Source: an uncultured Pseudomonadales bacterium (GTDB lineage: Bacteria; Patescibacteriota; Microgenomatia; UBA1400; UBA12028). Taken from it: DNA of 64,000 nt. Positions within the stretch are counted from its first letter, which is position 1; each line of letters starts with the position of its first letter. The translations under genes were made by a program, and so were the position numbers. Under the pieces are notes generated by a model. It was not told where the DNA came from and ran no database searches. It saw nothing but the letters and a program-made list of their open reading frames with translations. Shown here in pieces: positions 25,487-63,731 of the stretch. The DNA is taken from the NCBI GenBank assembly GCA_964509365.1, contig CAZDWN010000001.1, forward strand, positions 80,143 through 144,142, given 5' to 3'.

Positions 25487-26296
25487 TTGCGTAGAGTCGT
25501 CTTTCTCTTGTATGCTGGAGCTAGTATGAAGTCGATCGTGGCAGTTGCCGTCCTGTTTGGTGTCCTATCCCTAGGCATCGGTACCTATTTTGTCTCCACC
25601 GGGCGTGCCCCTCAAATGATCTCTCGGGCTGCACCGGAGACGAGTGTGCTCTCAAATCTGATTGACGACTGCGACTTTATCGCCCTCCCAAACTGCAGCG
25701 ATCGCACTTCCGGGAAATCGCTTGCAGTCTTTATCACGGAAGAGACTGAACAATTGATTCGAGACAATGCGCCGAAATCAGTCGTGGATTATCGAGAGAC
25801 CGTCTCGCCCGACTTGTTCAATGACCTAGGCAACCCTATCGTTCTGCCGACCAAACAAGTCTATTCAGTCGGAGATATCTTATCGAGAATCTCGTTGTCG
25901 TCAGACATTGACAATCGTTTACTCGTCGCTCTGTTTATGTCGCAAGGGTCAAAGGCCTGGGATGGTCAATCGAGTCTTTCTAATCCACTCAGTCGCAAGG
26001 AATCCTCATTTTCTGGCCAATTTGCGCAAGCAGCGATAGAGCTTCGCGATGGCTTTCACTCGCAGCTCGAATTTCCCACCAATTCAGTGACCAACGGCAC
26101 CACAAATTATCCATTTGATTCTGGATATGTGAGTACATCCTCGCGCGCATTGTATGCATATTTGGCCCGCACGAGTTCGCAAGCGGACTTTAAACGAATT
26201 GTTTCTCTGTCACAAGCGGAGCCAACATCATTTCGCGCGGTGTGGAAATTGATCCATCCAGTCGCTCCAAAAAAAGTAATTGAGAATTTGTATTAA
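25487..26296 (+). CDS. membrane-anchored protein, partner paralog B
   Basis: paralog of 19073-19861; its 3' end overlaps giant paralog B by 4 nt. Confidence 0.55.
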   Translation: MRRVVFLLYAGASMKSIVAVAVLFGVLSLGIGTYFVSTGRAPQMISRAAPETSVLSNLIDDCDFIALPNCSDRTSGKSLAVFITEETEQLIRDNAPKSVVDYRETVSPDLFNDLGNPIVLPTKQVYSVGDILSRISLSSDIDNRLLVALFMSQGSKAWDGQSSLSNPLSRKESSFSGQFAQAAIELRDGFHSQLEFPTNSVTNGTTNYPFDSGYVSTSSRALYAYLARTSSQADFKRIVSLSQAEPTSFRAVWKLIHPVAPKKVIENLY

Positions 26297-28800: not shown

Positions 28801-29363
28801 AGCGTTGCGACCATTTGTGGCTGAATACTATAGGTGTTTGGAGTGATTTCTTTGGCTTGGAGGAGCGCCTCCATTGGCGGCACGAGGCTTTTGACAGCGT
28901 CGGCATCCGTCTTCGTGACGACGACTCGGACCTCGATCGACGTTCCTGTTTTGAGTGACGATAAGATCTCCGATACTTTTTGCATCTTCCAAGGCAATTG
29001 ACCTTTCGTATCGAGATCAGCAAAATTGATTTGTGACACACCTTGAGCGAGCATGACACGAACAGGAATTTTCTTCTCATCGCCTTCGATCGCTATATCC
29101 ATCGCATACAGGCCAGAGTAGTCTTTTGGAGCCGTGAGGATCGTCCCTCTCACTGTATAAATCGTTTGATCATTACTTGGTTCGTTTTTGCGGACAAAAT
29201 ATTTTGGATTGCGAGTCTCTTGTATTGTCGGCGTTTGCTCGGTACTGACAGCCACAAATTCCTTTTTCGCCGCACTCCCACTTCGGCGTGTCGCCCAAAA
29301 AACGAGTCCAGCAAGGAGTGTGAAAAAAATGACGAGGACAATGAGGACAGAATACGATTTCAT
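28797..29363 (-). CDS. hypothetical N-terminally TM-anchored protein
   Basis: 188 aa; overlaps the giant gene start by 4 nt, the same layout as 23557-24150. Confidence 0.45.
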   Translation of the reverse strand: MKSYSVLIVLVIFFTLLAGLVFWATRRSGSAAKKEFVAVSTEQTPTIQETRNPKYFVRKNEPSNDQTIYTVRGTILTAPKDYSGLYAMDIAIEGDEKKIPVRVMLAQGVSQINFADLDTKGQLPWKMQKVSEILSSLKTGTSIEVRVVVTKTDADAVKSLVPPMEALLQAKEITPNTYSIQPQMVATL

Positions 29364-38829: not shown

Positions 38830-39987
38830 TTAGACTGATTGGGTCTGCTTCAGTTCGTCATGCAGGACAGCCTGGAGTTCGTCGTGAGTGATGATTTTTA
38901 CAAGTTTTTGCGATTTCTCATGGAGGGCGCGATATCGCGGTTCGAGATCCTCATCTGACTCCCCATCCACTTTATTGAGGATTCCGTCGATAAACTTGGG
39001 TACAAGCGTGAGAGTCTGAGTCGAGAGTTTTGCTTTTTTTTCGCTCTTTTCGCGCTCTGCTTTCAATATCTCCTCCCCCAGCTTCACTCCAGCTTGAGTG
39101 CGAAATTCTTTTAACGTAGGATATTTTTGCAAAAATTCGAGCAACCAGGCAGTACGACCACTCTCGCCAATGACCACCATGTCTCTATTTTGAATAAAAT
39201 TACGCTCTACTTCCTCGACGGTAATTCCTCCGCCATTATAGACCGCGGCCATACTTCTGGCCTTTTCACCACGAGACTTCTGTTGTAATGCCTCGGCAAC
39301 TTTAAAGAATACTTCAGTTTCGTCTCCAAAGTTGTCTCCTTCGACGAGAACTGAGTGTGTATGGTTGGGCTCGATCACTTCCATATCAGCAGGCTTCTTG
39401 TCCTTCTCGCCTTTCCATACTTGTGCAGATGGTGAGATACCGACGAGCGCTACGTCGATTTTTTCTTTGAGGAGTTGCTCTCGGACTTTTCCAGCAATTT
39501 GGATGATTCCTGAATCAGTACCACCGGTGACCATCACCGGGCGCTTTCCTTCTTGTACTACTTCCTTCAGTTGAGAGCAGAAAGCGTCCACCAGTTTTTG
39601 CTGTTCACCACCCTCGGACTTATCCATGAAGCCAGCACCCCCGTTGAACAGGAGTACAAAGTCAAACGGCGACGCTTGGGTTTGCGTATCGTAGAGTTTG
39701 AGATCTGCGAGCATCTTCTGGACAGCCGATGTATCAGCATTCTTGGGAATCTCTGCGGTCTGTAAACCTGCTTTATCAAGATTAACGACAGGCACTTCGA
39801 CCATCGCAGTACCAGGCTTCTCTTGTGTTTCTTCTACTGCCATCTCTCGCTTCACGGTGGTGGGCCATTCTCCTCGTATCCTGGCCATATTGATGTTATC
39901 TTCCGCACGTAGCGGATTCATCTTTCCATTCATGCTTTCTTTCATAGTGGTTACCCACTCGGTGATCTTATCCATATGTGCCTCCAA
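38830..39987 (-). CDS. Rossmann-fold LOG/SLOG-like protein with N- and C-terminal extensions
   Basis: VMVTGGTDSGIIQIAG and AAVYNGGGITVEEVE resemble the LOG-family glycine motifs; weak assignment. Confidence 0.35.
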   Translation of the reverse strand: MEAHMDKITEWVTTMKESMNGKMNPLRAEDNINMARIRGEWPTTVKREMAVEETQEKPGTAMVEVPVVNLDKAGLQTAEIPKNADTSAVQKMLADLKLYDTQTQASPFDFVLLFNGGAGFMDKSEGGEQQKLVDAFCSQLKEVVQEGKRPVMVTGGTDSGIIQIAGKVREQLLKEKIDVALVGISPSAQVWKGEKDKKPADMEVIEPNHTHSVLVEGDNFGDETEVFFKVAEALQQKSRGEKARSMAAVYNGGGITVEEVERNFIQNRDMVVIGESGRTAWLLEFLQKYPTLKEFRTQAGVKLGEEILKAEREKSEKKAKLSTQTLTLVPKFIDGILNKVDGESDEDLEPRYRALHEKSQKLVKIITHDELQAVLHDELKQTQSV

Positions 39988-40234: not shown

Positions 40235-41563
40235 TTAACCCTCGGCGGTGGGCTCTACCGTTTGATCGACTGACTCAAGGAACCATTTTCCTTGGATTCC
40301 TTCTGCACTCCAACCAGTTACTCCCAAATAAGTGATCTGGTACCAGTATTTACCACTATGGCATTTCGGACCACCAATGATGGTGACCGATTCGCCATTG
40401 GCTATGCTGCCAAGCTTGGCAGCATCAGAGCCTGGCAAAGCGCGAATAGCCAGAGGCTCACCATCCGGAGTTGACCTCGCTGCAGTCAATCCAAAAAGTC
40501 GTGATGGAGGAGCACCGACACAGGGGACGATAGTCCCAATTGCCGATGGAGTCCCTGCCGCTGCCGCACTGACCGTTGTCGGAGTTGCGGTTGGCGTAGC
40601 CGTTGTAGTGACGACAACTTTCGCGAAGACCATAGGTACCCATGCATTTGACGCGCCTATGTTTATCTCGTACCAGCCATCTTTTTGGCCGACGTACGTG
40701 AATGTGGCACCTTTTGCCACCACCTGTATCGGCGATACTTCCGCCGATGGCTCAGAGAACACTTGCGTGTCTTTTAGAACCACAATTTTCTGTGGCAGCT
40801 CAGTAGCGACGAGGCCTGGAGTGAGTGTGAGAGCTGGCGTCGCAGTTGCTGCGCCCCCATTCAGCGATGAGCAATCAGGGTGCAATTCAATTACGGGCGT
40901 CCCGTCTTCAAGCAAAGAGAACTTTCCCTTCAGCCATCCTGCATGTGCGTCATCTTTGACGCTGTACCACAACGTCCCGTCACAGTCCGTCGTCTGACCG
41001 AGGTACACAAAAACTGTGCCCTTTGGCGCAACTTCGATAACCGGTGCAAACGGACTCGGGAGAGTCCGCAAGTTCAGGTTTGTTGTATTCACTTGCACTT
41101 TCTTCCCAGATGGATCACCGGCTGATTGCACGGTCGCACTCGAAGTTTGGGCCGGAGGTGCGACAGTTGGTAGGACAGTCTGGCCAATTGGATCGATGTG
41201 GTACTTTTGAGAGAACTTCTCAAAGTCAAACAAATCGTCATCTGCTGAGACGCGGACTTCGATGTCCACATCACCTGTGACGGTCAAGACGACAGACCCC
41301 GTTACCTCAGACTTTCCCTGATCCGCTCCGATGAGCGTGGAAAAGCCTGAAATCTGAACTGGGCCAACCTTTTTCCCATCATCGCAATGCACCGTGGTCT
41401 TGAAAACCACGGTCTGCCCTACGACACCCGACGTCGGATCAGCCGTTAGGCTATCGACGTGACAAGCACCACTAGCCAATGCACTACCAAATGAGTAAAA
41501 GAACAAAAACAGTCCCGCGAACATGAACCCAAGGCCAAGTAACCACTTCACTCTATTAGACAT
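40235..41563 (-). CDS. secreted protein with SH3b-like repeats
   Basis: N-terminal TM/signal; segments GTLWYSVKDDAHAGWLKGKF and KYWYQITYLGVTGWSAEG. Confidence 0.5.
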   Translation of the reverse strand: MSNRVKWLLGLGFMFAGLFLFFYSFGSALASGACHVDSLTADPTSGVVGQTVVFKTTVHCDDGKKVGPVQISGFSTLIGADQGKSEVTGSVVLTVTGDVDIEVRVSADDDLFDFEKFSQKYHIDPIGQTVLPTVAPPAQTSSATVQSAGDPSGKKVQVNTTNLNLRTLPSPFAPVIEVAPKGTVFVYLGQTTDCDGTLWYSVKDDAHAGWLKGKFSLLEDGTPVIELHPDCSSLNGGAATATPALTLTPGLVATELPQKIVVLKDTQVFSEPSAEVSPIQVVAKGATFTYVGQKDGWYEINIGASNAWVPMVFAKVVVTTTATPTATPTTVSAAAAGTPSAIGTIVPCVGAPPSRLFGLTAARSTPDGEPLAIRALPGSDAAKLGSIANGESVTIIGGPKCHSGKYWYQITYLGVTGWSAEGIQGKWFLESVDQTVEPTAEG

Positions 41564-41618
41564 TTTTCACCTCCTCAGGTGAATAATTAGCTCCCAGAAC
41601 GGTTTAAAATTTGATTTT

Positions 41619-41665
41619 CTGGGCAACAGCGTACCCACCACCAGATGTGGCACGCTGTTACCCAG
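41619..41665 (-). promoter_or_regulatory. long inverted repeat in the 5' leader of the 40235-41563 gene
   Basis: arms ctgggcaacagcgt and acgctgttacccag (13 of 14 bp) around a 19-nt loop. Confidence 0.3.
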
Positions 41666-41788
41666 AGTAGTATTCACATGTTAAAGAGCTTGTACTCGAG
41701 GGCTCCAAGCGATCCGTACTGGATCAAAGGAGATCAAGAGACAAGCGAAGATTATATCCTAAAACAGGTGAAAAAGCCAGTTATAGGC

Positions 41789-42448
41789 CTATTTAGAGAG
41801 CCTGGTTAGGCCGTATTCAGAGGTGATCCATCCGAGAGTAGATTCGTTGATTCGTATCTGGTACCAGCCATTGGAGATGACATCGGCAAATGAGATGTAC
41901 CACCCGCTTGGCAAGACGCCGATTTGTGTGGACTGTAAGCTTGCGCCGTTGCGGATTCGCACATTGATTCCAGGGATGATTGCCTGGACGCTGGCGGCCG
42001 CAGTTTGGAGTTTTGACCCCATGATTGGAGCCGACGGGACTCGAGAAGACCTTTGAGCAGACACGGTGTTTGAGGTGCGAGCGACTGCATTCCCATTGAC
42101 TACATACGTCAGCGTCTCGCTAGTAGGGAGCATTCCGTTTGGATCATCTTTCGAGACGACACGCACAGTGACCGTATAGGTTCCAGGTCCAAAGGTAAAT
42201 CCATTGGTATCCCAGATTCCTTCCGAGATGACCGAGGAACGCACGACGTACGACACTGACGCTACTTCTGAAGGACATGAGGTATCGGCAGTAAATCGGA
42301 CACTGGTCCCTGCCGCTACTGGTGAGGCTGGACTCCCCCGAAAATTGGAGATCGTGCAGTCACCCATTGCAAACGCCTGCTTTGGACTTCGAAGAGTACC
42401 GAAGAGGACAGAGATGATGACGATGGCACAAACGATTGGCTTTTTCAT
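41789..42448 (-). CDS. secreted SH3b-domain protein
   Basis: signal peptide; NGWYQIRINESTLGWITSEYG SH3b-type C terminus. Confidence 0.5.
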   Translation of the reverse strand: MKKPIVCAIVIISVLFGTLRSPKQAFAMGDCTISNFRGSPASPVAAGTSVRFTADTSCPSEVASVSYVVRSSVISEGIWDTNGFTFGPGTYTVTVRVVSKDDPNGMLPTSETLTYVVNGNAVARTSNTVSAQRSSRVPSAPIMGSKLQTAAASVQAIIPGINVRIRNGASLQSTQIGVLPSGWYISFADVISNGWYQIRINESTLGWITSEYGLTRLSK

Positions 42449-43395: not shown

Positions 43396-45543
43396 ATGAA
43401 GATGAGTACCCCATTGACCACTACCTTTGAGATACGCACGCCACGCAATAGCGAGTTGACGCCTGAGTCAGCTGGCCATTTTTTTGCTACACTTCCAAAT
43501 CCACCGACGGGTGTATTCAACTGGTTTGCCAAAGCGCCATCGATCACTGTGGAGTTCTTAAGCCAAGGACAGACAGTGTTCACTTTGCTCACCGTCCCGA
43601 CGGATCATGAAGAGTACTTCGTGACGCAATTGTCAGCAGCCTACCCGCAAGTGCGCATAAAAAAGCTGGAGCACAATCCTCTCGATGCTTTTTCACTCAC
43701 CGCTCCGATCGAAGTCGGACGTCTGCGATTATCCTCAGGTACCTATCTCCCGATCAAGACCTATAGAGAGACTGCCCCAAATGATCCACTGACCAATATA
43801 TTCTCTACTCTTGCGAAGCTTGGCGAAAATGAGCAAGCGATGATCCAGTTTGAGATTCACAAAGCGACCGAGCATTGGAAGCACGGAGGTCACAAAGCTG
43901 CCGAGGGACATATCTCAAATGGCGTCGCCGTTCCCCACCCTCAAAAAGCGCAGATTGAGACGAAGCTCTCCCAATCGTCATTTGGTGTCTGTATTTCGAT
44001 CGTGGCACAAGCGCAGACGCAGGAGCGCAGCAATCAAATCTTGCGGTCATTGCAATCAGCATGCACGAGTGTCGATCTTCCGTATCAATCGCTGCGACTC
44101 ACGCAGCCACTGTTGAGAAAGACTCGATTTGCTGAGCAGATTCTCCATCGAACGGTGCCCTACTCCCATCAATATTTGAGTACCGATGAGTTGGCGACGC
44201 TGGTACATTTGCCAAATAAGAACTTCTCAGCGATCAACAACATTGCTTGGGGCAAGACACTTCAGGGAGAGCCACCAGAAAATCTTCCGACATTTGGGAG
44301 TTTATCCGAAGAAGAGCGTGCGAACGTCAATTTATTTGGCCGAGTGCAGTTCAAGAACCAAGATCAAATATTCGGGATCAAGCGCGAAGACCGCAGGCGA
44401 CACATGTATGTCTTGGGGAAAAGTGGGACCGGAAAATCGACACTCCTGGCAAACATGATCATCAGCGACCTAAAGCACAATGAAGGGATTGCGGTCATCG
44501 ATCCACATGGTGATTTGATCGAGACGGTGCTCGAGTACATTCCCAAACACCGCATCAATGATGTCATTCTCTTGGATCCAGCTGATCCTGAAGCAGTCGT
44601 AAAGATGAACTTATTTGAAGGTGGCTCGATGGTGCATCGAGAGTTGATCGCGTCAGGGATCGTCTCCATTTTCCAAAAGATGTATGCGCACTCCTGGGGA
44701 CCTCGGTTGGAGTACATCTTGCGAAACACCCTGCTGACTCTCCTCTCTGAGCAAGCCAAGCTTGATGATATCTTGCACATGCTGACTGATGACAAGTTCC
44801 GGGCAAAAGTCGTGGATCGCCTGCAGGATCCGGTGCTCAAAAACTTTTGGGTGACAGAATTTAATACCATGACTGAAAAGCAACGTATTGAGGCGATCTC
44901 CCCGATTCTCAATAAGGTCGGTCAATTTGTGACGTCTCCATTGGTGAGTGGCGTGGTCAATGCGAAGACCAGTTCATTTAACATCGAAGAAGTGATGGAT
45001 CAAGGCAAGATCTTATTGGTAAATGTATCGCAAGGCAAACTGGGTGAGGATAATGCGTCACTGTTGGGTGCGATGCTTATCACCAAGATCCAGCTCGCTG
45101 CGATGAATCGCGTCTATAAGAGCGAAGAGAGCCGACGAGATTTTTACCTCTATATCGACGAGTTCCAAAATTTTGCCACGACCAGTTTCGTAAAGATTTT
45201 ATCTGAAGCGAGAAAATATCGGCTCAATCTCACGCTCGCAAATCAGTATATGGATCAGATTCCAGAGGAAGTGAAAGCCGCGATCTTTGGCAATGCCGGG
45301 ACGATATGTAGCTTTATCTTAGGTGCCAGTGATGCTGACGCCATGATGAAAGAATTTGGTCAAAAGTACACGCAAGAGGATTTAGTATCGCTTGAGCGCT
45401 ATCAGATCATCACCAAGCTCATGATCGACAACCAGATGAGTCAGCCATTCCCTGCGGCGACCTTGTCGCTCTCCAATTCCAAAAATCAAAACAAAGATAA
45501 AGTCCTTCGCTCCTCTCGCGAACGATATGCGCGGAAGAAATAG
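43396..45543 (+). CDS. TraD/VirD4/HerA-like P-loop ATPase with a ~330-aa N-terminal domain of unknown function
   Basis: Walker A LGKSGTGKST and Walker B FYLYIDEFQNF; C-terminal TraD/TraG-like hallmarks. Confidence 0.6.
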   Translation: MKMSTPLTTTFEIRTPRNSELTPESAGHFFATLPNPPTGVFNWFAKAPSITVEFLSQGQTVFTLLTVPTDHEEYFVTQLSAAYPQVRIKKLEHNPLDAFSLTAPIEVGRLRLSSGTYLPIKTYRETAPNDPLTNIFSTLAKLGENEQAMIQFEIHKATEHWKHGGHKAAEGHISNGVAVPHPQKAQIETKLSQSSFGVCISIVAQAQTQERSNQILRSLQSACTSVDLPYQSLRLTQPLLRKTRFAEQILHRTVPYSHQYLSTDELATLVHLPNKNFSAINNIAWGKTLQGEPPENLPTFGSLSEEERANVNLFGRVQFKNQDQIFGIKREDRRRHMYVLGKSGTGKSTLLANMIISDLKHNEGIAVIDPHGDLIETVLEYIPKHRINDVILLDPADPEAVVKMNLFEGGSMVHRELIASGIVSIFQKMYAHSWGPRLEYILRNTLLTLLSEQAKLDDILHMLTDDKFRAKVVDRLQDPVLKNFWVTEFNTMTEKQRIEAISPILNKVGQFVTSPLVSGVVNAKTSSFNIEEVMDQGKILLVNVSQGKLGEDNASLLGAMLITKIQLAAMNRVYKSEESRRDFYLYIDEFQNFATTSFVKILSEARKYRLNLTLANQYMDQIPEEVKAAIFGNAGTICSFILGASDADAMMKEFGQKYTQEDLVSLERYQIITKLMIDNQMSQPFPAATLSLSNSKNQNKDKVLRSSRERYARKK

Positions 45544-46305: not shown

Positions 46306-47232
46306 TTATAACGCTGTACTGACCTTTACGATATTTTCCATAAGGCTTATCACCGTGACTGGACCGACGCCGCCAGGGACCGGAGTTAAGAATGATGCTT
46401 TTGGTTCGACAGAAAAGTTTTCCACATCAGCTGCTGGGGATCCGACGTCGATGACGACAGCTCCCTCTCCGACCATCTCACCTTTTAGAAGATCTGCCTG
46501 ACCTGCTGCACAGATGATGATCGGAAAATCTTGAGTTTTGGTGATCTCAAATTCTTGCTTGCCGACATTGACCACTGTATGTCCAAGCACTCGCAAGAGG
46601 TGCGTGAGCGGTTTGCCCACGATATCAGATTTTCCGATGACGAGGACGGATTTTTTCATCCACTCTTCATTCGTCGCTCCCAGCGCATTCTTAGCATTCT
46701 GAAGGATCGAGAGCACTGCTTTGACCGTCGCCGGGACCAGAAAACTATCCGTTCGACCCTCGTGTGAGTACACATGCCTACCGGTAGGCATGGCTCGAGT
46801 GCTCAGGATGACATTCAAGTTCTGCTGAGTCAGACAATCAATATCTTTTTGAGGATCGATTGCGGTCGTGAGACTCTCCCACCATTTTGCAAAATCAGTT
46901 GTCGCTCTCTTGTCATTGTATTTTTCCCAGACCGCTTTCGCTGGTTTCTGGATCATGACACCGGTGACTGACGCATTAAATGACAGTTCACGAATATTTT
47001 GGATGAGTTCGCCCTGATCATCCGCTAGCGAGCACACATATGGTTCGTACAGGATCCCGATGCGCTCGGCAGCTTTCTTCTTGAGGCCCGTGTAGAGGAT
47101 ACTTCCTTCGTCCTCTTTGAATGTGACACTGGTGACGCGAATGGTTTTCCCTTTTGCATGCAGGAGATCGACCTCGTGTTTCAACAACAGTTCTTTTTCC
47201 GCTGCAAAAGTTTTCCCATCAAATAAAATCAT
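46306..47232 (-). CDS. folD: bifunctional methylene-THF dehydrogenase / methenyl-THF cyclohydrolase
   Basis: FolD N-terminal pattern DGK..A, YxxxK motif and Rossmann GxSxxxGxP (VIGKSDIVGKP). Confidence 0.8.
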   Translation of the reverse strand: MILFDGKTFAAEKELLLKHEVDLLHAKGKTIRVTSVTFKEDEGSILYTGLKKKAAERIGILYEPYVCSLADDQGELIQNIRELSFNASVTGVMIQKPAKAVWEKYNDKRATTDFAKWWESLTTAIDPQKDIDCLTQQNLNVILSTRAMPTGRHVYSHEGRTDSFLVPATVKAVLSILQNAKNALGATNEEWMKKSVLVIGKSDIVGKPLTHLLRVLGHTVVNVGKQEFEITKTQDFPIIICAAGQADLLKGEMVGEGAVVIDVGSPAADVENFSVEPKASFLTPVPGGVGPVTVISLMENIVKVSTAL

Positions 47233-49532: not shown

Positions 49533-50150
49533 GTGTATACTTTTGTCATGAAACTTCCATTGATTAATCCGGACGTAGAAATACTATTGCAAACCACGAT
49601 TCTCCCAGACCTTGAAAAAGGAAGGAAAAATTTTGACCGTCCCCATACGGAAGCAGTAGTTTTTTGGATGAAGGAGCTTCTTGAGAAAATAAACTCTCCA
49701 ACTTGTGATCAGCTTGTATTAATTACCGCTGCCTATGCTCATGACTGGGGATATATTGGGCTTTTTGATGGAATAGATAGTTCGGACATCAATGTAGTCC
49801 ATAAGATGAAGCCACTTCATATGGAGCGAGGTAGCCTTCTTATAAAAATGCTGATTGATGAAAAGCTCAACAAGTATTTCACCAGCGAGCAAGCGGAGCT
49901 TGTTGCCCATCTGGTCTATATGCATGACCGAATAGAAAAATTAGCAACTGAACCAGAGATCTTACTTATGGAAGCTGATACACTGGGAATGTTAGATACT
50001 GACAGAGTAAAGCCCACGTTTTCCAAAGCCGACAACACTGTGTTTATTTCTCGTGAACTACAAGAAAGAAGATTGCCTGTATTTCTTCATCCTGTCGCCA
50101 AAGATCTGGCTAAATCCCTTATGCAGAAGCGAATTGCTTTCTATTCTTGA
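49533..50150 (+). CDS. HD-domain phosphohydrolase
   Basis: H...HD...D pattern (AAYAHDWGY ... MHD). Confidence 0.5.
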   Translation: MYTFVMKLPLINPDVEILLQTTILPDLEKGRKNFDRPHTEAVVFWMKELLEKINSPTCDQLVLITAAYAHDWGYIGLFDGIDSSDINVVHKMKPLHMERGSLLIKMLIDEKLNKYFTSEQAELVAHLVYMHDRIEKLATEPEILLMEADTLGMLDTDRVKPTFSKADNTVFISRELQERRLPVFLHPVAKDLAKSLMQKRIAFYS

Positions 50151-51385
50151 TTGAAGACCTGAGCTCCTGCAACTGAATATGCGTCAAGCCGATTGAACGA
50201 GAACTCAAAATCGGGATCTGCCAAAGCCAGTTCCACAGCGCCCAAAGCAGAAGTAAACAATTTATATCTTTGATCCTGGTTTTCATTTGCATCGAAAAGT
50301 GAGGAGACAAACGCCTTGTAGCCATAGAATAGTGCCATATACTTTCGAATATGCCTATCATGTCGGTCCAAACCATATTTTGTGACAAAATTATCGGCTA
50401 TTTGAGAAAAATCCCCCACAAGTGTTTCTCCTTTGGATTTATTTGCATCTAAAAAGGCCAAGTCTGCGTACGCAAAGACTACATCATAGCCTGCTTCGCC
50501 AAATCCGACTGATGCGGGGTCAATTATCTCAACTCGATCTTGAAGCTTGTCGGTTGAAACAAAAATGTTGGCCGACCAAAGGTCCCCATGAATCGCAGAT
50601 AATCTAGTTCTCGCATCTTTTGAATATCGTTGTGCTAATTCCGACATCCTTTCCTTCAGCATGTCAACTTTGTCTGAGCCAATTCTACCTTCAGAAAACT
50701 GTGGCATGAGTGCTCCAAGTCCATTAAGTCTAGTTGAATCTTCGATCACATGTAGCACTCCATTCTTGTAGAGTTCTCTGGATCTAGCCAAGATAGCCGG
50801 ACCAAGGGGAGATTCGTGAAGGGTTAACATCTTCTCAGTTACTTCTTTGTAGAGTTCGACAATGTCGTCTTTGGAAGTGTTCATCTCATTCATCAATTCA
50901 GCTGACTGAATTGTAGAGAGTCCCAGTTGTCCCAAGAATGTGAGCATTTGCTTGTATTCTTTCGGATCCAAAAGATTTTGAATCGCAAACACCAAGTCCA
51001 AGTTCTTCAGTTGGTTTGGCGTGATGTCAGTTTCGTCAATGCGAGTAACAGTTATTTGGTCAAGTCCAAAGGCACCGTAGGATTTGTTGACCCCACTACG
51101 AGGACGTGAACTATCGATTAAATCCTTCCGTCTGGCAATATCAAGTCCACTCTCATCCTCGTCTCTATCTCGCTCAGTCTTTATGAAAAAAGGATATGTC
51201 GTTCCAGATGTTTCCACCAGAACCTTGAATCCAAAAGAGAATTGGCCTTGGCCGATTTTTTCTACAGATGAAATTCGGACCGGGATATGTATGTCAGTTA
51301 CATCCTTGAGAAGTGGAATAAATATTTGTTGAATTTGCTCTTCAGGCAAAGTCTCTAGTTGACGTTTCCTTTGTTCGGCTGACAT
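50141..51385 (-). CDS. APH/ChoK-like phosphotransferase (kinase of unknown substrate)
   Basis: catalytic loop IHGDLWSANIFV and DxxS/D motif; 414 aa with an N-terminal extension. Confidence 0.55.
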   Translation of the reverse strand: MSAEQRKRQLETLPEEQIQQIFIPLLKDVTDIHIPVRISSVEKIGQGQFSFGFKVLVETSGTTYPFFIKTERDRDEDESGLDIARRKDLIDSSRPRSGVNKSYGAFGLDQITVTRIDETDITPNQLKNLDLVFAIQNLLDPKEYKQMLTFLGQLGLSTIQSAELMNEMNTSKDDIVELYKEVTEKMLTLHESPLGPAILARSRELYKNGVLHVIEDSTRLNGLGALMPQFSEGRIGSDKVDMLKERMSELAQRYSKDARTRLSAIHGDLWSANIFVSTDKLQDRVEIIDPASVGFGEAGYDVVFAYADLAFLDANKSKGETLVGDFSQIADNFVTKYGLDRHDRHIRKYMALFYGYKAFVSSLFDANENQDQRYKLFTSALGAVELALADPDFEFSFNRLDAYSVAGAQVFNQE

Positions 51386-51388
51386 AGA

Positions 51389-52054
51389 TTATCCTTTTAT
51401 CTGAGCAGATATATGAGTGATTATTTTCTTCGCGTCATCGGGATTATTTTCAAAATCAGTGACGAATTCTTCAGTTACTTCAATTACTTTGACGTCTTTC
51501 GAAGTCAATTTTTCATGAAGTGCGGAGAGTCCAAGTTCAAGCTGTCCCAAGTATTCTCGAGTGTAGAATGCAAGTTCGTAATCTCTCCCTCGTTTTTTGA
51601 GTCGTTCCATCAACGTATCCATCGAGTAGCTCAGTTTGACGACATGTGTATTCTTGAACAATCCATCGGTCAATTCGTCATACAGTGTGTGATACAGTCT
51701 CCACTCATCGTCAGTGATATTTCCGACGAGCAGATGACTGTAGGTATACACCCAGCTCATGAGCAATCCACTATCGATGATCGTGATCCCTTGCTTTCGT
51801 TTCCCGAGTTCTGCTCGCAAGATTTTTATTCGCTCAATTGTGAGCCATGTCTCATTGGCAAATGCCCATCGTTTCATATCTGCAAGATATGGTTTTGCGA
51901 ATGGGTCAGAGGTCTGAAAGAGGTCGTCAGCATCGACTGCATGTGCACCAAGTGATTTGACGAGAATTGGCATGAGGGTCGATTTCCCCGATGCCACATT
52001 GCCGATAATTGTAAGAGTTTTTGCAGACATACTTTTAAGATCGTCTCTTTTCAT
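51389..52054 (-). CDS. deoxynucleoside kinase (dCK/dGK family)
   Basis: P-loop IGNVASGKSTL and dNK-type fold; 221 aa. Confidence 0.7.
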   Translation of the reverse strand: MKRDDLKSMSAKTLTIIGNVASGKSTLMPILVKSLGAHAVDADDLFQTSDPFAKPYLADMKRWAFANETWLTIERIKILRAELGKRKQGITIIDSGLLMSWVYTYSHLLVGNITDDEWRLYHTLYDELTDGLFKNTHVVKLSYSMDTLMERLKKRGRDYELAFYTREYLGQLELGLSALHEKLTSKDVKVIEVTEEFVTDFENNPDDAKKIITHISAQIKG

Positions 52055-56468: not shown

Positions 56469-57314
56469 TTAAATTCTATGGGCATTGATGCTGTCCCGCA
56501 ATGAGCGGGCCTCCGTGCTAGGGGTACTCGAGAAGATAATTTGACGTGAACTACTGATGAGCATGCCAGCATGATCGCTATTTTTCCCGGCAATCACCGT
56601 TGCTTCCAGATCTCCACCCTGCGCTCCGATTCCAGGGATCAGTAGCGGCATGTCACCGACAATTGAGCGGATTGCCGCCAATTCTGCTGGATAGGTTGCT
56701 CCAGCGACCAGCATGCAGTTGTCATTTGCATTCCACTTCTGGGAAACATTTTCCGCAACAATTTCCCAAAGCTGTTTCTCTTTTTTTTGAATTTTGATTT
56801 TTACATTTTGAATTTCTCCACTTCCCGGATTTGAAGTCTTACACAGGATGATGCTCACTTTGTCTTTTCGATCTAAGAAAGGCTGGAGCGCTTCTTGTCC
56901 GAGGTATGGATGCAAAGTGATCGCATCAAATCCAAGTTCATCAAAGATTGCAGTGACGTACCCAGCGTTTGTATTTCCGATATCACCGCGTTTGGCGTCG
57001 GCGATCGTAAAGATGTCTGGATGATGGGTATGGAGATAGTCCATCGTCATGGCGAGTTCCGTCCATCCCTGCGCCCCTCTTGCTTCATAAAACGCAAAGT
57101 TAGGCTTGTAGGAAGACACATATTCATGCGTTTGCTCGATGATCCATTTATTGAACTCATACTGAGGTGTATGAGATTTCTGAAACTCCGGAGGGATTTT
57201 TGTGATATCACTATCAAGACCCACGCATAAGAGTGAGCTGACTTTGAGCTCACGTTTTCTTAGTTTCTCATGAGCCGTCATATTTCCTCTCCAGATAAGT
57301 AGCTGTCTCGTCAC
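56469..57314 (-). CDS. pyrF: orotidine 5'-phosphate decarboxylase (type 2)
   Basis: LCVGLDSD signature of type-2 ODCase; 281 aa. Confidence 0.75.
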   Translation of the reverse strand: MTRQLLIWRGNMTAHEKLRKRELKVSSLLCVGLDSDITKIPPEFQKSHTPQYEFNKWIIEQTHEYVSSYKPNFAFYEARGAQGWTELAMTMDYLHTHHPDIFTIADAKRGDIGNTNAGYVTAIFDELGFDAITLHPYLGQEALQPFLDRKDKVSIILCKTSNPGSGEIQNVKIKIQKKEKQLWEIVAENVSQKWNANDNCMLVAGATYPAELAAIRSIVGDMPLLIPGIGAQGGDLEATVIAGKNSDHAGMLISSSRQIIFSSTPSTEARSLRDSINAHRI

Positions 57315-57579
57315 TCACAATCTCCTGCAAAGTGCTGCGAAGTGTACTCAGTAGCCCATGTGGATATTTGCTGATGTGTTCAACAAATTCTTGGTCGTAC
57401 AGAATTCCTGATTCGAGAATATTTTCGTACACTGCGGCATGAGCTTGTATAACCGATGGAAGAGTTTGAAGAGCCAAAAAATAATCAGCAGAAGTTTGAT
57501 TGAGATCAAGTTCCGTGAGCTGATTAATATACGCTTCAGCAGCTTTTAGATCAGGGCTTAGTTCTGTTAAGACACTCAT
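57268..57579 (-). CDS. hypothetical protein between pyrE and pyrF
   Basis: start set at the Met behind an aaaggaa SD; overlaps both neighbours, so operonic. Confidence 0.4.
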   Translation of the reverse strand: MSVLTELSPDLKAAEAYINQLTELDLNQTSADYFLALQTLPSVIQAHAAVYENILESGILYDQEFVEHISKYPHGLLSTLRSTLQEIVSDETATYLERKYDGS

Positions 57580-58223
57580 ATATTTCCTTTCGTTCCCCAC
57601 GAATGTGGATTTTTCATCCAGTCTTGTACCATCTTCACTTCCTCCTTAGTGATCTTTTTCATTTTGATTGCTTCTCTGAAAATATGTGCAAATGTAGTCA
57701 GTGTATGCAACCGCACGCCCGAGTTCGCAAATGCTTCATTCGCTTCCGTAAACTCATAACTCGTAATGCTCAAACAATCGGTGACTATTGCACCTGCAGC
57801 ACGAAGAGACTGGACTGCCGTCAGACTTGAGCTCCCTGTCGTTACGTGGTCCTCGATGAGCAGTACTTTCTTTCCGACGACATCTCCTCCTTCAACCATT
57901 TTTTTTGTTCCATGATCTTTGACTGCTTTGCGTACAAAGACCGAGGGGCGTTTGAGAACAAATCCAAGTGCCGCGCTATGCGGTATTCCTGCCGTTTCCA
58001 CCCCAGAGAGTACATCAAAACTGACGAGGCCATCTTCGATGAGTTGCTGAAATCCCTCAAATATTTTTTGCCACCTCGATGGATAAAAAGGCAACTTTCG
58101 GTTATCAACGTACACTGGAGAGAGCATCCCTGTCTTAAACGTAATTGGATTGTTTGGTGAAAAACCTACTGCATTGATCTCAAGTAGTGCTTTGGCAATA
58201 TTTTCTTGCGTGGTCATATCCAT
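57576..58223 (-). CDS. pyrE: orotate phosphoribosyltransferase
   Basis: FKTGMLSPVYVDNR and PRTase loop VLLIEDHVTTGSS. Confidence 0.8.
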   Translation of the reverse strand: MDMTTQENIAKALLEINAVGFSPNNPITFKTGMLSPVYVDNRKLPFYPSRWQKIFEGFQQLIEDGLVSFDVLSGVETAGIPHSAALGFVLKRPSVFVRKAVKDHGTKKMVEGGDVVGKKVLLIEDHVTTGSSSLTAVQSLRAAGAIVTDCLSITSYEFTEANEAFANSGVRLHTLTTFAHIFREAIKMKKITKEEVKMVQDWMKNPHSWGTKGNI

Positions 58224-58231
58224 CTTTCTTT

Positions 58232-58858
58232 TTAATTTGTACCAAAGTAGCGGTCTCCGTAGTCCCCTAGCCCTGGGACGATATATTTTTTAGCATTGAG
58301 ATGACTGTCGACTGCGGCTGTGAAGATCGCGACTTGCGGGAACTCCTCGTGGATAGCGTTGATCCCTTCAGGCGCGGCGATGACGCAGACGACACGCATC
58401 TCTTTCAATTTTTCTTTAGAGACGCGCCGCAGCAGATGCAACAGTGATCCCCCAGTTGCGAGCATCGGATCGGTGACGATGACGACGCTGTGGCTGGCAA
58501 GCTTAGGGAGTTTCCAGTAGTACTCACTGGCCACTGCCGTTTTCTCGTCCCGTGCCAGTCCGACAAATCCGATTTTTGACTTTGGTAGGAGGTCCATGGC
58601 GCCAAATAGCATCGCGATTCCCGATCGCAATACTGGGATGACGACGATCTCGTCGGCGAGCTTCTTTGCAGTGACAGTTTCAAGCGGAGTCTCTATGCTG
58701 ACGTCCTTAAATGACAGTCCGCGGATTGCTTCAGCAAACAAGAGTCTACAGAGGCGATCGGAGTGCCGCCGGAACTTATCCACATCCGTCTGTTTATCTC
58801 GCAGATGCGTGAGTGAGTCTTGGATAAATGGATGATCGATGATAAAGACATTTTTCAT
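58232..58858 (-). CDS. upp: uracil phosphoribosyltransferase
   Basis: IIDHPFIQDSLTHLRDKQT N terminus and PRPP loop; 208 aa. Confidence 0.85.
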   Translation of the reverse strand: MKNVFIIDHPFIQDSLTHLRDKQTDVDKFRRHSDRLCRLLFAEAIRGLSFKDVSIETPLETVTAKKLADEIVVIPVLRSGIAMLFGAMDLLPKSKIGFVGLARDEKTAVASEYYWKLPKLASHSVVIVTDPMLATGGSLLHLLRRVSKEKLKEMRVVCVIAAPEGINAIHEEFPQVAIFTAAVDSHLNAKKYIVPGLGDYGDRYFGTN

Positions 58859-59724: not shown

Positions 59725-60372
59725 CTACACCTCCAACTTTTCTTTTACTTTTGCCCAGATTTGCTGTTCGACAGTCTCCATATCAGTGTTTGCGTCGATG
59801 GTGACCCAGCGATGATGGTCATTTGCGTCTGCGAGTGTCTTGTACGCCGCACGGACCTGATCATGGAATGAGAGATTTTCCATTTCCATGCGATTGCTTC
59901 CTCCAGCTTGCGCTTGTCTTTTGAGTCCGGTGCTCGTATCGACATCGAGGAAAAAAGTGAGATCTGGGTACGTATCTTTCGTAGAGAGTTTATTGAGCTC
60001 TTCGATCTTGTCGATCCCAAATTGTCTGACGATCCCTTGATAGACCACTGAAGAGTCACGAGTTCGATCCATGAGGACGATTTTTTGAGCTTCGAGACTT
60101 GGGAGCACCAGTTCTCGGTACACTTGGGCACGGGCAGCCTGGAAGAGTAGGACTTCGGCGGTATATGCGATGCCGATATTTTTTGCAGATAAGACGACTT
60201 CGCGGATTTGTTCGGAGATCGCGGTCCCCCCTGGTTCGCGCACGACGACGACATCAAAACCTTCCTTGGTAAGATGGTCGCGCAGGCGCACAATCTGCGT
60301 CGACTTCCCCCCGCCTTCGCCACCTTCAAATGAGATTAAGAAACCTTTTTGCATATGAACAACATACCACAT
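59725..60372 (-). CDS. tmk: thymidylate kinase
   Basis: FEGGEGGGKSTQ P-loop and REPGGT motif. Confidence 0.8.
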   Translation of the reverse strand: MWYVVHMQKGFLISFEGGEGGGKSTQIVRLRDHLTKEGFDVVVVREPGGTAISEQIREVVLSAKNIGIAYTAEVLLFQAARAQVYRELVLPSLEAQKIVLMDRTRDSSVVYQGIVRQFGIDKIEELNKLSTKDTYPDLTFFLDVDTSTGLKRQAQAGGSNRMEMENLSFHDQVRAAYKTLADANDHHRWVTIDANTDMETVEQQIWAKVKEKLEV

Positions 60373-60440: not shown

Positions 60441-60725
60441 TTATTTGCCTCCAAATTGAGCTTTCGATTGAATTTGCATCCGTTCGTGGACCGATTTATT
60501 GATAAAAGAATCCTTTGGAAGACTGGCAGTACTTTGAGGTGCTTGGACCGATGAGCGGATATCTTTCATCTCTTTTGCAGCGTAAGTGCTTGCTTGCTGG
60601 GTGAAACTCTCCTGGCTATTGTTCTTGATTGCGTAGGGAGCGTTATCTTGCGGTTGCGTGCTATCAGCCAATTTGATTTTATCTTGGAGTGATTTACGGA
60701 ATTGCCCAGGAGTAAAACGAGACAT
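60441..60725 (-). CDS. hypothetical protein
   Basis: 94-aa ORF. Confidence 0.3.
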   Translation of the reverse strand: MSRFTPGQFRKSLQDKIKLADSTQPQDNAPYAIKNNSQESFTQQASTYAAKEMKDIRSSVQAPQSTASLPKDSFINKSVHERMQIQSKAQFGGK

Positions 60726-60729
60726 AGAT

Positions 60730-61068
60730 TTATGCCTTCACTTCCCTTGGTTGGAGGCTTAGGCCCCATGACGTTGTCTGTATCGCGGCATTGTCATTTA
60801 TGCGAAGAACTGTCAGTTTGTCTGTGAGTCTAGGAGATGCCGCTCTTTTTATCGAATTTTGGGAAATAAGTAGGCCAGCCCATTCCACCGCTTGGAACTC
60901 AGGTACAGTCGAGATTTTAGATAATTCAAGAATGAGGCAATATGCATTTGCCCGTAGCACTTGAGCCGGTTCCAAATCTTGACAATGGCTCTCGACCATT
61001 CTCAGCCGAAATACGGTTTCAATATTATTTATCTCTGATATATCCATTTCTTGCACAGGCATATACAT
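60730..61068 (-). CDS. hypothetical protein
   Basis: 112-aa ORF. Confidence 0.3.
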   Translation of the reverse strand: MYMPVQEMDISEINNIETVFRLRMVESHCQDLEPAQVLRANAYCLILELSKISTVPEFQAVEWAGLLISQNSIKRAASPRLTDKLTVLRINDNAAIQTTSWGLSLQPREVKA

Positions 61069-61127: not shown

Positions 61128-62720
61128 TCACGCAGGATCTTGTTCGTAGTGGGTGCCGGTTTTGATGGATTCCTCGGCTTTCTGAAGTTCCAAACCGATA
61201 TACATGAGGTGACCGGGGATCGTGATGTAGTTCCAGTCAGTGATTTGCCAGGCTACTTCCTGAGCAGTGCGGCCTTCAAACATTTTGAGGGCAGGTCCTC
61301 CATTCGGTTCATAGATCGTAGCCCGAATGAGTTTCCCTCCCTCTTTTGGCATTTTCTTCAGCATGCGCTCGACCGCCATCGGTACAGACTCGTTTTCGTA
61401 GCGCTTCGACCAGTACGGAAAGCTCTGAGCATCAGACTCATTGATCACTTCGACGATGGCATTGCCTCGACTATCAAAATCAAAATGCACTTGCGGCGTG
61501 TATCCAAGTTCTTTCTCATAGTGTTTCATGAGCAGCTCATCGACGAGCGCAAAGTCATCAGCGTACATGTGAGCACTATGGGTGATCATGGTGAGCGGTC
61601 CCATCGCCATCCCGGCGCTGTCGGCAATATCTTTTTGAAGTTTGCGCAGTGCAAATGTATTGCGAGGCCAACCATGCACCATATCTTGACTGCGAAAGTG
61701 GCATGTAAAGAAAAATTTATCGTCCTGGACAGATCCTAAGACCATCGTGAGACAAGGAGTGTCGCCTTTGTTCGCTTCGGCCCAGTCACGTTTGGGATCG
61801 ATTGTGATCGCCACCATTTTTTTGCTATCGGGACGAAGTTGAATGAGTTTCTTTATCTCGTCGACTTGATTGACACCGAGATCTTCGCGCAGTCGTTTGC
61901 CATAATTGTAAGCGACTCCAGGGATAGACCTGGCAGTCATCATCTCAGCGTAGTAGGATTCGAGTTCAAATCGTGCGAATGGAAGATATTCGGGAAAATA
62001 AATTTCGTCGGGATCCTCATCAGTGATGACGGCAGTGAGATTCAAGATTTCTTTGAGACTATTATCTTTTGAGTATCTTGTGTGTTTCGGTCTGCCATAC
62101 TTTGATATCTCATTAAGTAGTTTGAGCCAGGTCATTGCCACTTTTGGCGAGCCGACGCGAAACCCAGATTGCTCACTTGGTAGGAGTTGGATCTTTGGCT
62201 CACTTCGTGGGAATTCTCGCGAACGTTTGGCAAATGGCTCGATTGTTTTTTCAGAGAGCTCTTTTGCTTTTGTGACCATCTCGACAGCAGTCTTCCCTCG
62301 CATATCCACGACCGCCACCATTTGCCGAAACTCTTGCAACATGTCTTCTGGGAGCATGTCTTCGATCTCTCCTCGTGCACCGACGATGCGTCGATTTTCG
62401 TCCACTCCGTTTTCAATAAATTTTTTGAGAGACTGCCCCGACTGGCTCATCTCTGCACCCCAGATCAAGATGACACGGATATGCGGATTCGCAAAGATAT
62501 TGCGGATCATCGCATTGATGCCTTGTGCGCTGTAGAGATTGCCGATGGTATTGTAGTCGACGTCCTTTAAAAGTCCTTCAACTGCCTGACGCTCTGTCCA
62601 GAGGCAGCAGATCGCCAAATGATGCTCAGGGTTTTTCACTTTGAGAACATCTTTATAAAATAGCGGCCAGTGGGACAAATCGATAGGCATCGCTGGTGAA
62701 CATAGCAAACCCAAAATCAA
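61128..62720 (-). CDS. thymidylate-synthase-fold enzyme with ~165-aa N-terminal and ~100-aa C-terminal extensions
   Basis: aligns by eye to ThyA: DSKKMVAITIDPKRDW...PC(L) ~ DSRRIIVSAWNP...PCH; RSQDMVHGWPRN ~ RSADMFLGVPFN; GPLTMITHSAHMY ~ GEFIHTLGDAHIY. Confidence 0.65.
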   Translation of the reverse strand: MILGLLCSPAMPIDLSHWPLFYKDVLKVKNPEHHLAICCLWTERQAVEGLLKDVDYNTIGNLYSAQGINAMIRNIFANPHIRVILIWGAEMSQSGQSLKKFIENGVDENRRIVGARGEIEDMLPEDMLQEFRQMVAVVDMRGKTAVEMVTKAKELSEKTIEPFAKRSREFPRSEPKIQLLPSEQSGFRVGSPKVAMTWLKLLNEISKYGRPKHTRYSKDNSLKEILNLTAVITDEDPDEIYFPEYLPFARFELESYYAEMMTARSIPGVAYNYGKRLREDLGVNQVDEIKKLIQLRPDSKKMVAITIDPKRDWAEANKGDTPCLTMVLGSVQDDKFFFTCHFRSQDMVHGWPRNTFALRKLQKDIADSAGMAMGPLTMITHSAHMYADDFALVDELLMKHYEKELGYTPQVHFDFDSRGNAIVEVINESDAQSFPYWSKRYENESVPMAVERMLKKMPKEGGKLIRATIYEPNGGPALKMFEGRTAQEVAWQITDWNYITIPGHLMYIGLELQKAEESIKTGTHYEQDPA

Positions 62721-62738: not shown

Positions 62739-63731
62739 TTACACCGCGCTGTAGGTGACGCCTCGTGTAGTTCCATTTTTCACTATCAATTTTTTTTTGA
62801 GCAAATCATTGACGTCAAAGCTCAGCGTACGACGAGGAATAGTGGGAAAACGCCTGGCGATCAAATCGAGAGAGCAAAACGGATGATCTTTGATGATCTC
62901 AAGGATCTCGTGACGTCGCGGGAGGAGGTTTAAAGGCTTCCCTTCTTTCTCAGGAAGTTTGGTATCGCGGATCTCATCTAAGACTTGTTCAAATCCCCAG
63001 ATGATCGAGTCCAACAAGAATGATTCAAAGTCTTCAATCGTTTTATTGCTTTGCTCCAGATAAAAATAATATTTATCTCGCTGCCGCTCAAAGTATTGGT
63101 CGATTGGGATGACGACATTTTTTGGGGCGATCTCGAATCTCGCGAGAAGAAGATGTAAGAGCACTCGCCCGACCCGACCATTCCCATCGATGAATGGATG
63201 GATTTTTTCAAAAAACAGATGCAGTGGAGCCACTGACAGTAATGCATTTTTTCCTGTATCAATCTTATTAAAAGTAGTTAGAAATGCATCAAGCATCGCA
63301 TCCATCGTCTCGCGATCTGGGGTTAAATACACGGCGTTTCCAAAGGCATCAAAAATAGCAGTTTGCTCTCGCCTGAGCTTCCCAGCATCACTCGATACCG
63401 TATCGAGGATGATTGTGTGGATTTCTTGGAGTGTGATGAGTGAGAGCTTTTCTGTCCATCGAGGCAACAGAGTCAATGTCCTCATAACATTCGCTATTTC
63501 TTTTTTGGATTTTGAATTTTGAATTTTGGAATTTTCGAACTCCTCAAGAGTGAGCGCGTTTCCTTCGATGCGCGCCGAGAACAAGGACGATTTGAGATAT
63601 TGCGTATGAAAGACGCGTTGCGCGAGCTCCGGTGGGATCGGCAGATGCTTCAACGTTTCTGAGAGGACGAAAATCCTTGAGATTTTGGAATCGATTTCTG
63701 GTGTAGACTCGAGACTAGTTATTTCCAGCAT
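62739..63731 (-). CDS. Fic-family protein (AMPylator-type)
   Basis: HPFIDGNGRVGR Fic motif. Confidence 0.8.
   Translation of the reverse strand: MLEITSLESTPEIDSKISRIFVLSETLKHLPIPPELAQRVFHTQYLKSSLFSARIEGNALTLEEFENSKIQNSKSKKEIANVMRTLTLLPRWTEKLSLITLQEIHTIILDTVSSDAGKLRREQTAIFDAFGNAVYLTPDRETMDAMLDAFLTTFNKIDTGKNALLSVAPLHLFFEKIHPFIDGNGRVGRVLLHLLLARFEIAPKNVVIPIDQYFERQRDKYYFYLEQSNKTIEDFESFLLDSIIWGFEQVLDEIRDTKLPEKEGKPLNLLPRRHEILEIIKDHPFCSLDLIARRFPTIPRRTLSFDVNDLLKKKLIVKNGTTRGVTYSAV

Follow-up and report, generated by a model that had tools for sequence, protein, structure and literature searches.

Two textbook routes lead to thymidylate, of which that through ThyA needs dihydrofolate reductase (DHFR, encoded by folA) and that through ThyX does not. 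The described enzymes closest to the one reported here are thymidylate synthases of the methanogen type (TIGR03283, thy_syn_methano), which have a core of ∼200 amino acids (aa) lacking the canonical folate-binding insert, stand alone, and occur in hosts that use tetrahydromethanopterin; MJ0757 is one member. To our knowledge, the cofactor use of the short archaeal ThyA has never been settled biochemically. The gene under study lies in a stretch of 64 000 nucleotides (the window) from contig CAZDWN010000001.1 of assembly GCA_964509365.1, from an uncultured bacterium of the class Microgenomatia in the candidate phyla radiation (CPR). As judged from its sequence, its product is a short archaeal-type thymidylate synthase core lying between a copy of MtrA, the B12-binding (corrinoid) subunit of the methanogen Mtr complex, without its cobalt-ligand histidine and a putative pterin-binding domain, DUF4346. 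The methanogen-type enzymes gave the best match to the core, which is of the same length and equally without the folate-binding insert; unlike them, this protein adds one domain on either side and comes from a bacterium that uses folate and carries glyA and folD.

Compared with canonical ThyA (Escherichia coli and Lactobacillus casei, PF00303), the protein shows only ∼17–19% identity, has leucine in place of His147 and carries two extra domains. Like the bifunctional DHFR-thymidylate synthase of protozoa and plants, it is a thymidylate synthase of ∼520 aa with an additional N-terminal domain, and a functional analogy is possible if the extra domains recycle a pterin; unlike in that enzyme, the extra domains are of unrelated folds and stand on both sides of the core. 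The same accessory domains occur in NF002128 (MtrA-like and DUF4346) and, in part, in TIGR00284 (dihydropteroate synthase-like), neither of which has the ThyA core that here lies between the two domains. No characterization of DUF4346 in the proteins of these two families was found in the literature.

Domain organization

The open reading frame (ORF) occupies 61128-62720 on the reverse strand and encodes 530 aa from a mechanical start, TTG, at 62720. An ATG at 62690 is the probable start, because homologues at 79–93% identity begin MPID(L/V); residue numbers throughout are those of the 530-aa ORF. An earlier note on this DNA had drawn attention to the ORF as a ThyA-fold enzyme with unexplained N- and C-terminal extensions. 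The ORF is present in the window and the motifs quoted from it were all found, namely ITIDPKRDW (aa 305–313), GDTPCLTMV (aa 319–327), RSQDMVHGWPRN (aa 343–354) and THSAHMY (aa 380–386). The extensions can no longer be called unexplained, as both are catalogued Pfam domains. Three Pfam domains were matched, every one over its gathering score: MtrA (PF04208) at aa 53–159 (E 1.7e-14), Thymidylat_synt (PF00303) at aa 273–403 (E 3.1e-11) and PterinBD-DUF4346 (PF14251) at aa 463–528 (E 8.1e-12; 46.2 bits, with the cutoff at 29.6). The features of the gene, all on the reverse strand, are as follows.

61128-62690, reverse strand: probable coding sequence of the three-domain enzyme, 520 aa and stop, ATG at 62690
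62238-62669, reverse strand: MtrA-like Rossmann-type domain, aa 18–161, without the cobalt-ligand histidine
62148-62237, reverse strand: linker, aa 162–191, poorly conserved, low-confidence
61512-62147, reverse strand: short (archaeal-type) ThyA-fold catalytic core, aa 192–403
61752-61754, reverse strand: codon of Cys323, predicted catalytic nucleophile, aligned with C146 of E. coli ThyA
61659-61694, reverse strand: loop RSQDMVHGWPRN, aa 343–354
61131-61487, reverse strand: PterinBD-DUF4346 domain, aa 412–530, ending in a conserved Y-x-Q-D motif
61341-61445, reverse strand: two-helix insertion inside DUF4346, aa 426–460, specific to the Microgenomatia clade

The N-terminal domain of ∼150 aa is thus joined by a linker of ∼30 aa to a core of ∼200 aa, which is followed by a C-terminal part of ∼125 aa. 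An AlphaFold2 model built with 47 homologues gave a mean predicted local distance difference test score (pLDDT) of 84 and a predicted template modelling score (pTM) of 0.68, with disorder confined to the linker and two loops. In the linker the pLDDT fell below 50 at model residues 167–175 (aa 177–185), and no domain match to aa 162–191 was obtained in Pfam or NCBIfam.

The ThyA-fold core

The ThyA fold and the catalytic landmarks proposed for the core were upheld by the Pfam match and by mapping of residues to E. coli ThyA, to which the core was aligned by jackhmmer via the family; column statistics were taken from 134 diverse full-length relatives. The nearest NCBIfam model was TIGR03283 (8.8e-37), which aligned with aa 192–391 over model positions 6–199 of 201. 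Because this model is matched nearly end to end, the core is of the short form of ∼200 aa. The score of 126.6 bits lies below the curated cutoff of 174.55, so the protein is not an equivalog member, and no NCBIfam model reaches its cutoff for the protein.

The predicted nucleophile, Cys323, is a cysteine in 133 of the 134 relatives and forms part of a P-C motif (Pro322-Cys323) that is 99% conserved. Tyr273 corresponds to Tyr94 of E. coli, the base, and is 97% conserved. In the RSQDMVHGWPRN loop, Arg343, Ser344 and Asp346 correspond to R166, S167 and D169 and are conserved at 94–97%, while His384 and Tyr386 are the equivalents of His207 and Tyr209 (deoxyribose 3'-OH; conservation 89% and 93% respectively). 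The Arg126-Arg127 pair, which in ThyA binds phosphate across the dimer, is represented by Lys300-Lys301 and by Arg-Arg in most relatives. Asn354 is aligned with Asn177 and is an asparagine in 131 of the 134 relatives (98%), a residue that, on the strength of this alignment, points to a nucleotide substrate of uracil and not of cytosine. The core accordingly retains the residues for Michael-addition chemistry on a uracil nucleotide. The replacement of PCH by PCL, read in the earlier note as a hint of an altered product, proved to be the family norm, with leucine in 101 of the 134 relatives.

Other canonical elements were missing. In the alignment with E. coli ThyA the folate-binding Trp80/Trp83 segment is absent from the core, as is the C-terminal lid, in place of which the chain runs on into DUF4346, and no unambiguous equivalent of Glu58 is conserved across the 134 relatives. 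The earlier view that the protein is not a DHFR-thymidylate synthase was borne out, since no DHFR domain was detected with Pfam, NCBIfam, PDB or phmmer searches. No similarity to ThyX was found in the protein, the window or 82 loci that carry related genes.

The N-terminal MtrA-like domain

In the structure of MtrA, His84 is the lower axial cobalt ligand and Tyr18 and Val61 sandwich the benzimidazole base, while the nucleotide tail is held by Lys52-N, Thr53, Gly57-O and Asn64 (PMC4915002). The N-terminal domain matched PDB entry 5LAA by phmmer at 2.2e-14, and a profile made from 20 diverse N-terminal domains aligned with the MtrA homologue of Methanothermus fervidus with an hhalign probability of 99.5% (E 2.7e-23). 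By these comparisons the domain is a genuine MtrA homologue, with a predicted MtrA-type Rossmann fold. It differs from MtrA and the cytoplasmic MtrA homologues (PDB 5LAA and 5L8X) in the deletion of His84, the replacement of Tyr18, the lack of a membrane anchor and its occurrence in a host other than a methanogen.

In the alignments of the domain a two-residue deletion falls exactly on Gly83-His84 of MtrA. The nearest alternative column, aa 96 (62433-62435), contains E, Q, D, K or H across the family and glutamine here, so that no conserved histidine is available, and the position of Tyr18 is occupied by leucine. Cobalamin binding, the default reading of an MtrA match, was rejected given the deletion of His84. 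The tail-holding residues have fared otherwise: Ser64, Gly67 (98%) and Asn74 are conserved counterparts of Thr53, Gly57 and Asn64. The family has also acquired invariant or near-invariant residues of its own at the sheet's ligand end, which are Trp41 (100%), Tyr63 (95%), Arg73, Asp90, Ser94 and Gly95. This pattern of conservation appears to mark a pocket for a ligand other than His-on cobalamin, and that ligand probably bears a phosphate or carboxylate.

No membrane helix of MtrA was present, the domain being followed by the ThyA core, and neither the window nor the recurrent neighbours yielded mtr genes. The domain could in principle trigger spurious calls of the methanogenesis gene mtrA in CPR genomes. 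At aa 96, three residues past the deleted His84, most close CPR relatives have histidine (SGH), with glutamine in this protein and in relative P0002.

The C-terminal DUF4346 domain

The DUF4346 domain was modelled with a pLDDT of 84.6, and no informative solved relative was found. Its conserved residues are D416 (99%), G419, H504 (98%), G509, E511, A515, Q527 (94%) and D528. The Microgenomatia-specific insertion falls in columns with >60% gaps in the broad-family alignment, and beyond it the Pfam match resumes at aa 463, profile position 16.

The domain also matched the C-terminus of the archaeal dihydropteroate synthase-like family TIGR00284 (model positions 432–494 of 497). In NF002128, a 390-aa family named MtrA, positions 161–255 match the N-terminal domain of the present protein and positions 316–370 match its C-terminal domain. 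The MtrA-like and DUF4346 domains therefore co-occur without a ThyA core, which suggests that they work as a pair. All partners of DUF4346 are pterin enzymes, and this is their shared theme; pterin binding by DUF4346 is putative and is implied by the Pfam name.

Distribution of the architecture

All three Pfam domains were present in 120 of the 120 matches listed in a search of 90% clusters, at identities of 59–93%; the names among the matches listed were Woesebacteria, Pacebacteria, Microgenomates and Patescibacteria. An exhaustive search of 1.84 billion representatives returned 2047 matches with E ≤ 1e-3, of which 256, clusters at 50% identity, had E ≤ 1e-30. Most of the best 150 of the 256 are 450–530 aa in length, and nine of 10 clusters scanned had all three domains. 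Named cluster members belong to Microgenomatia, Kerfeldbacteria, WWE3, Nanoarchaeota and Abditibacteriota. One member from Nanoarchaeota (733 aa) has an additional C-terminal dCMP deaminase domain, a domain that makes dUMP, and such a domain is added in relatives P0179/P0272. The viral-contig scan found no relatives of the fusion, which argues against a phage origin.

The domain combination was already visible in precomputed Pfam annotations, under database names that vary between thymidylate synthase, DUF4346 protein and hypothetical. A literature search in 8 million full texts found no publication on the MtrA-like/ThyA/DUF4346 architecture, and the fusion is not mentioned in a paper on Asgard thymidylate synthesis or in a Microgenomates genome paper. 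The architecture, widespread among the ultra-small CPR bacteria and also found in some DPANN archaea, seems never to have been studied.

Several longer relatives were noted. P0248 (837 aa) has two RSNDM motifs and possibly two ThyA-like cores, P0221 (862 aa) has ∼300 extra N-terminal residues, and P0251 (786 aa) and P0162 (625 aa) contain extra regions. Many species-representative records with a CPR-type gene and synteny (loci L001, L004, L007, L010 and others) bear the title 'uncultured Pseudomonadales' or 'uncultured Gammaproteobacteria', while L069 is titled Nanoarchaeia and L061 Saccharimonadales; such titles look like placeholders or mislabels.

Gene order around the fusion

Gene order was assessed in a scan with one genome per GTDB species, which gave 102 matches from which 80 loci were kept and their ORFs clustered. 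In 43 of the 80 loci the fusion is directly preceded by a same-strand dCTP-deaminase-like (dcd-like) gene, which often abuts or overlaps the start of the fusion, and ribonucleotide reductase is upstream in 13. Downstream, tmk was found in 56 of the 80. The loci also contained a HAD hydrolase (33 loci), a thymidine or deoxynucleoside kinase (30) and glyA (15). At locus L037 the three genes are directly adjacent, in the order dcd (separated by −4), fusion, tmk (+4). An independent Pfam-labelled neighbourhood on an 897-kb contig has the order ribonucleotide reductase, fusion, kinase, HAD, tmk and, further along, serine hydroxymethyltransferase, FolD and rpsB. This is the gene order expected for an enzyme that acts between dUMP supply and dTMP phosphorylation.

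The window itself is from a CPR chromosome, with dnaX, hisS-like, prs, secDF, rpsB, frr and rseP-like genes, and the fusion is surrounded by an island of pyrimidine and folate genes.

62739-63731, reverse strand: Fic/DOC-domain protein, 330 aa, directly upstream of the fusion
60441-61068, reverse strand: two small ORFs of 112 and 94 aa, between the fusion and tmk
59725-60372, reverse strand: tmk (thymidylate kinase, which acts one step further in the pathway), PF02223 at 7e-42, 756 bp downstream of the fusion
58232-58858, reverse strand: upp
57576-58223, reverse strand: pyrE-like phosphoribosyltransferase
56469-57314, reverse strand: pyrF
51389-52054, reverse strand: deoxynucleoside kinase (dNK), PF01712
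48211-49515, reverse strand: glyA (serine hydroxymethyltransferase, source of 5,10-methylene-tetrahydrofolate), PF00464 at 3.7e-146
46306-47232, reverse strand: folD (methylene-tetrahydrofolate dehydrogenase/cyclohydrolase), PF02882 and PF00763

An island with glyA and folD was also found at locus L081. The window as a whole yielded no dcd-like gene, and the two small ORFs gave no convincing family match (one weak match to VC2046, E 0.003). The cluster of upp, pyrE-like and pyrF genes beside the thymidylate genes looks like a salvage-oriented pyrimidine cluster; no de novo pyrimidine genes beyond it (56469-58858) were seen in the window. The Fic gene stands where most relatives carry the dCTP-deaminase-like gene or ribonucleotide reductase.

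FolA and ThyX were sought with the DHFRs of E. coli, L. casei and Staphylococcus aureus and the ThyX of Thermotoga maritima as probes, with no CPR DHFR as positive control, using phmmer, jackhmmer and a three-sequence hidden Markov model. Even at E ≤ 10, neither was detected in the window or the 82 loci (1.19 Mb), the DNA covered being the flanks of the fusions and not whole genomes. As a partial control, an E. coli ThyA probe recovered the fusions; no other thymidylate synthase was seen in their flanking DNA. A 2025 survey reported folA in 54.8% of 4581 CPR genomes against ∼80% for glyA and folD, and restated the usual coupling of thyA with folA (PMC11974145). In the part of the survey that concerns its own Paceibacteria genomes, folA goes together with canonical thyA and is missing from those with thyX (PMC11974145).

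Proposed function and alternative explanations

We consider it fairly probable, with real room for doubt, that the fusion serves its host as the housekeeping thymidylate synthase, with a short ThyA core of the methanogen type as its base, and that its accessory domains handle the pterin cofactor. The product is most likely plain dTMP and not some unusual modified base, dTMP formation being suggested by gene context. In this scheme Cys323 would add to C6 of dUMP, supplied in relatives by the adjacent dCTP-deaminase-like gene or the fused dCMP deaminase. The methylene group of 5,10-methylene-tetrahydrofolate, made by the nearby GlyA, would then methylate dUMP, and the dTMP would pass to the adjacent Tmk. 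Since the short core is without the canonical folate-holding elements, the fused domains are most plausibly a cofactor-handling module. Less certainly, DUF4346, which begins at the position of the ThyA lid, would bind or cover the pterin, while the ligand of the MtrA-derived domain may be an anionic tail, either the glutamate of folate or a moiety resembling a nucleotide, and not cobalamin, the two acting as a joint module.

The earlier note had raised the idea of a hydroxymethylase of the type used in phage hypermodification, and a ThyA-fold enzyme that makes hydroxymethyl-dUMP or another C5-modified product was weighed. The dCMP hydroxylase 9iqc/9iqu, MilA and T4 dCMP hydroxymethylase, ThyA-fold relatives of other chemistry, score as well as or above ThyA, which speaks for such an enzyme. 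So does the lack of the folate-sequestering Trp80/Trp83 segment and of the C-terminal lid, because of which the active site alone leaves a different product possible. The uracil-specifying Asn354, at 98% across the family, and the arrays of dcd or ribonucleotide reductase, fusion and tmk across the 80 genomes speak the other way. The phage dCMP hydroxylase AfhB (9iqc/9iqu), the CMP hydroxymethylase MilA and T4 dCMP hydroxymethylase are, by name, enzymes of cytosine substrates, and the named phage enzymes of the group come from phages, whereas this is a conserved gene in a chromosomal housekeeping context, present in >100 species-level CPR genomes. No glucosyl- or other modification genes recur among the clustered neighbour ORFs, nothing was found in viral contigs, one relative is fused to dCMP deaminase, and no alternative thymidylate synthase was seen nearby. 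A product other than dTMP is thus very unlikely, and the hypermodification idea was not sustained. Another possibility is that the accessory domains are catalytically inert relics which serve only in folding, oligomerization or regulation of an ordinary short ThyA. The stand-alone 200-aa methanogen ThyA manages without them and the corrinoid ligand has been lost, but strong purifying selection acts on the putative ligand-site residues of both domains in sequences only ∼30% identical, and the architecture has been kept across CPR bacteria, DPANN archaea and Abditibacteriota; we regard this explanation as unlikely.

It is conceivable, if unlikely, that the fusion represents a third, self-contained thymidylate route, in which dihydrofolate is regenerated or bypassed on board through a nucleotide-type reductant or an MtrA-derived cofactor relay. 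In the form that we hold to be rather unlikely, the MtrA-like and DUF4346 module would supply or recycle reducing power, drawing either on NAD(P)H or flavin within its Rossmann pocket or on the re-reduction of dihydrofolate on the enzyme, so that tetrahydrofolate would be regenerated with no separate FolA; such an enzyme would be a non-homologous analogue of the protozoan DHFR-thymidylate synthase, or of the logic of ThyX. Neither Pfam nor NCBIfam revealed an NAD(P)H or flavin fingerprint, reductase activity has no precedent in an MtrA-like or DUF4346 domain, and the similarity to 9iqc probably reflects merely its equally short core. The negative folA search of the flanks leaves room for such an enzyme, but the gene may lie elsewhere in the genome, and the DHFR probes had no CPR positive control. 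A corrinoid relay resembling MetH, in which DUF4346 binds a methyl-tetrahydropterin, a cobamide on the MtrA-like domain takes the methyl group and Cys-activated dUMP accepts it, would make dTMP without dihydrofolate. Corrinoid proteins without a protein ligand exist (corrinoid iron-sulphur protein), the N-terminal domain is truly and closely homologous to the one MtrA-type corrinoid-binding fold that is known, its S64, G67 and N74 match the cobalamin-tail residues T53, G57 and N64, and the three modules (substrate-activating, corrinoid-type and pterin-type) parallel those of MetH. These likenesses are outweighed by the deletion of His84, with no conserved histidine in the neighbouring column, and by the change of the base-stacking Tyr18 to leucine. 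The window and the neighbour clusters yielded no metF and no genes for cobalamin salvage or reactivation, and the core keeps the equivalents of Tyr94 and Asp169, typical of methylene-transfer chemistry. CPR bacteria are, in addition, generally poor in cofactor pathways (PMC11974145). The relay is consequently highly improbable.

The housekeeping dTMP synthase preferred here would constitute a third, widespread architecture beside ThyA and ThyX, probably with an ordinary product and a widely conserved accessory apparatus. Knowledge of the ligands of the two accessory domains would clarify the folate economy of host-dependent organisms and could reveal a FolA-independent ThyA. If the self-contained route were true, it would explain how a ThyA-type enzyme occurs without FolA in many CPR bacteria and DPANN archaea, as well as the cofactor requirement of the archaeal short ThyA.

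Other features of the window

Within 50141-52054 on the reverse strand, dNK is followed by a gene for a 414-aa protein with weak aminoglycoside/fructosamine-kinase-like matches, and an HD-domain protein is encoded at 49533-50150 on the strand opposite to the dNK run. A prokaryotic SLOG/LSDAT-domain protein (PF18171, 1.1e-28) at 38830-39987 on the reverse strand adjoins rpsB. A run of four large ORFs on the reverse strand at 19829-23560, 24184-25287, 26293-28800 and 28797-29363 encodes 1243, 367, 835 and 188 aa respectively and gave no Pfam match; they may be CPR-specific surface or secretion proteins. On the forward strand, 43396-45543 encodes a TraG/TrwB-type coupling-protein-like ATPase of 715 aa, with two SH3_3-domain proteins nearby (40235-42448), and this region may be part of a type IV secretion-like machinery of Patescibacteria.

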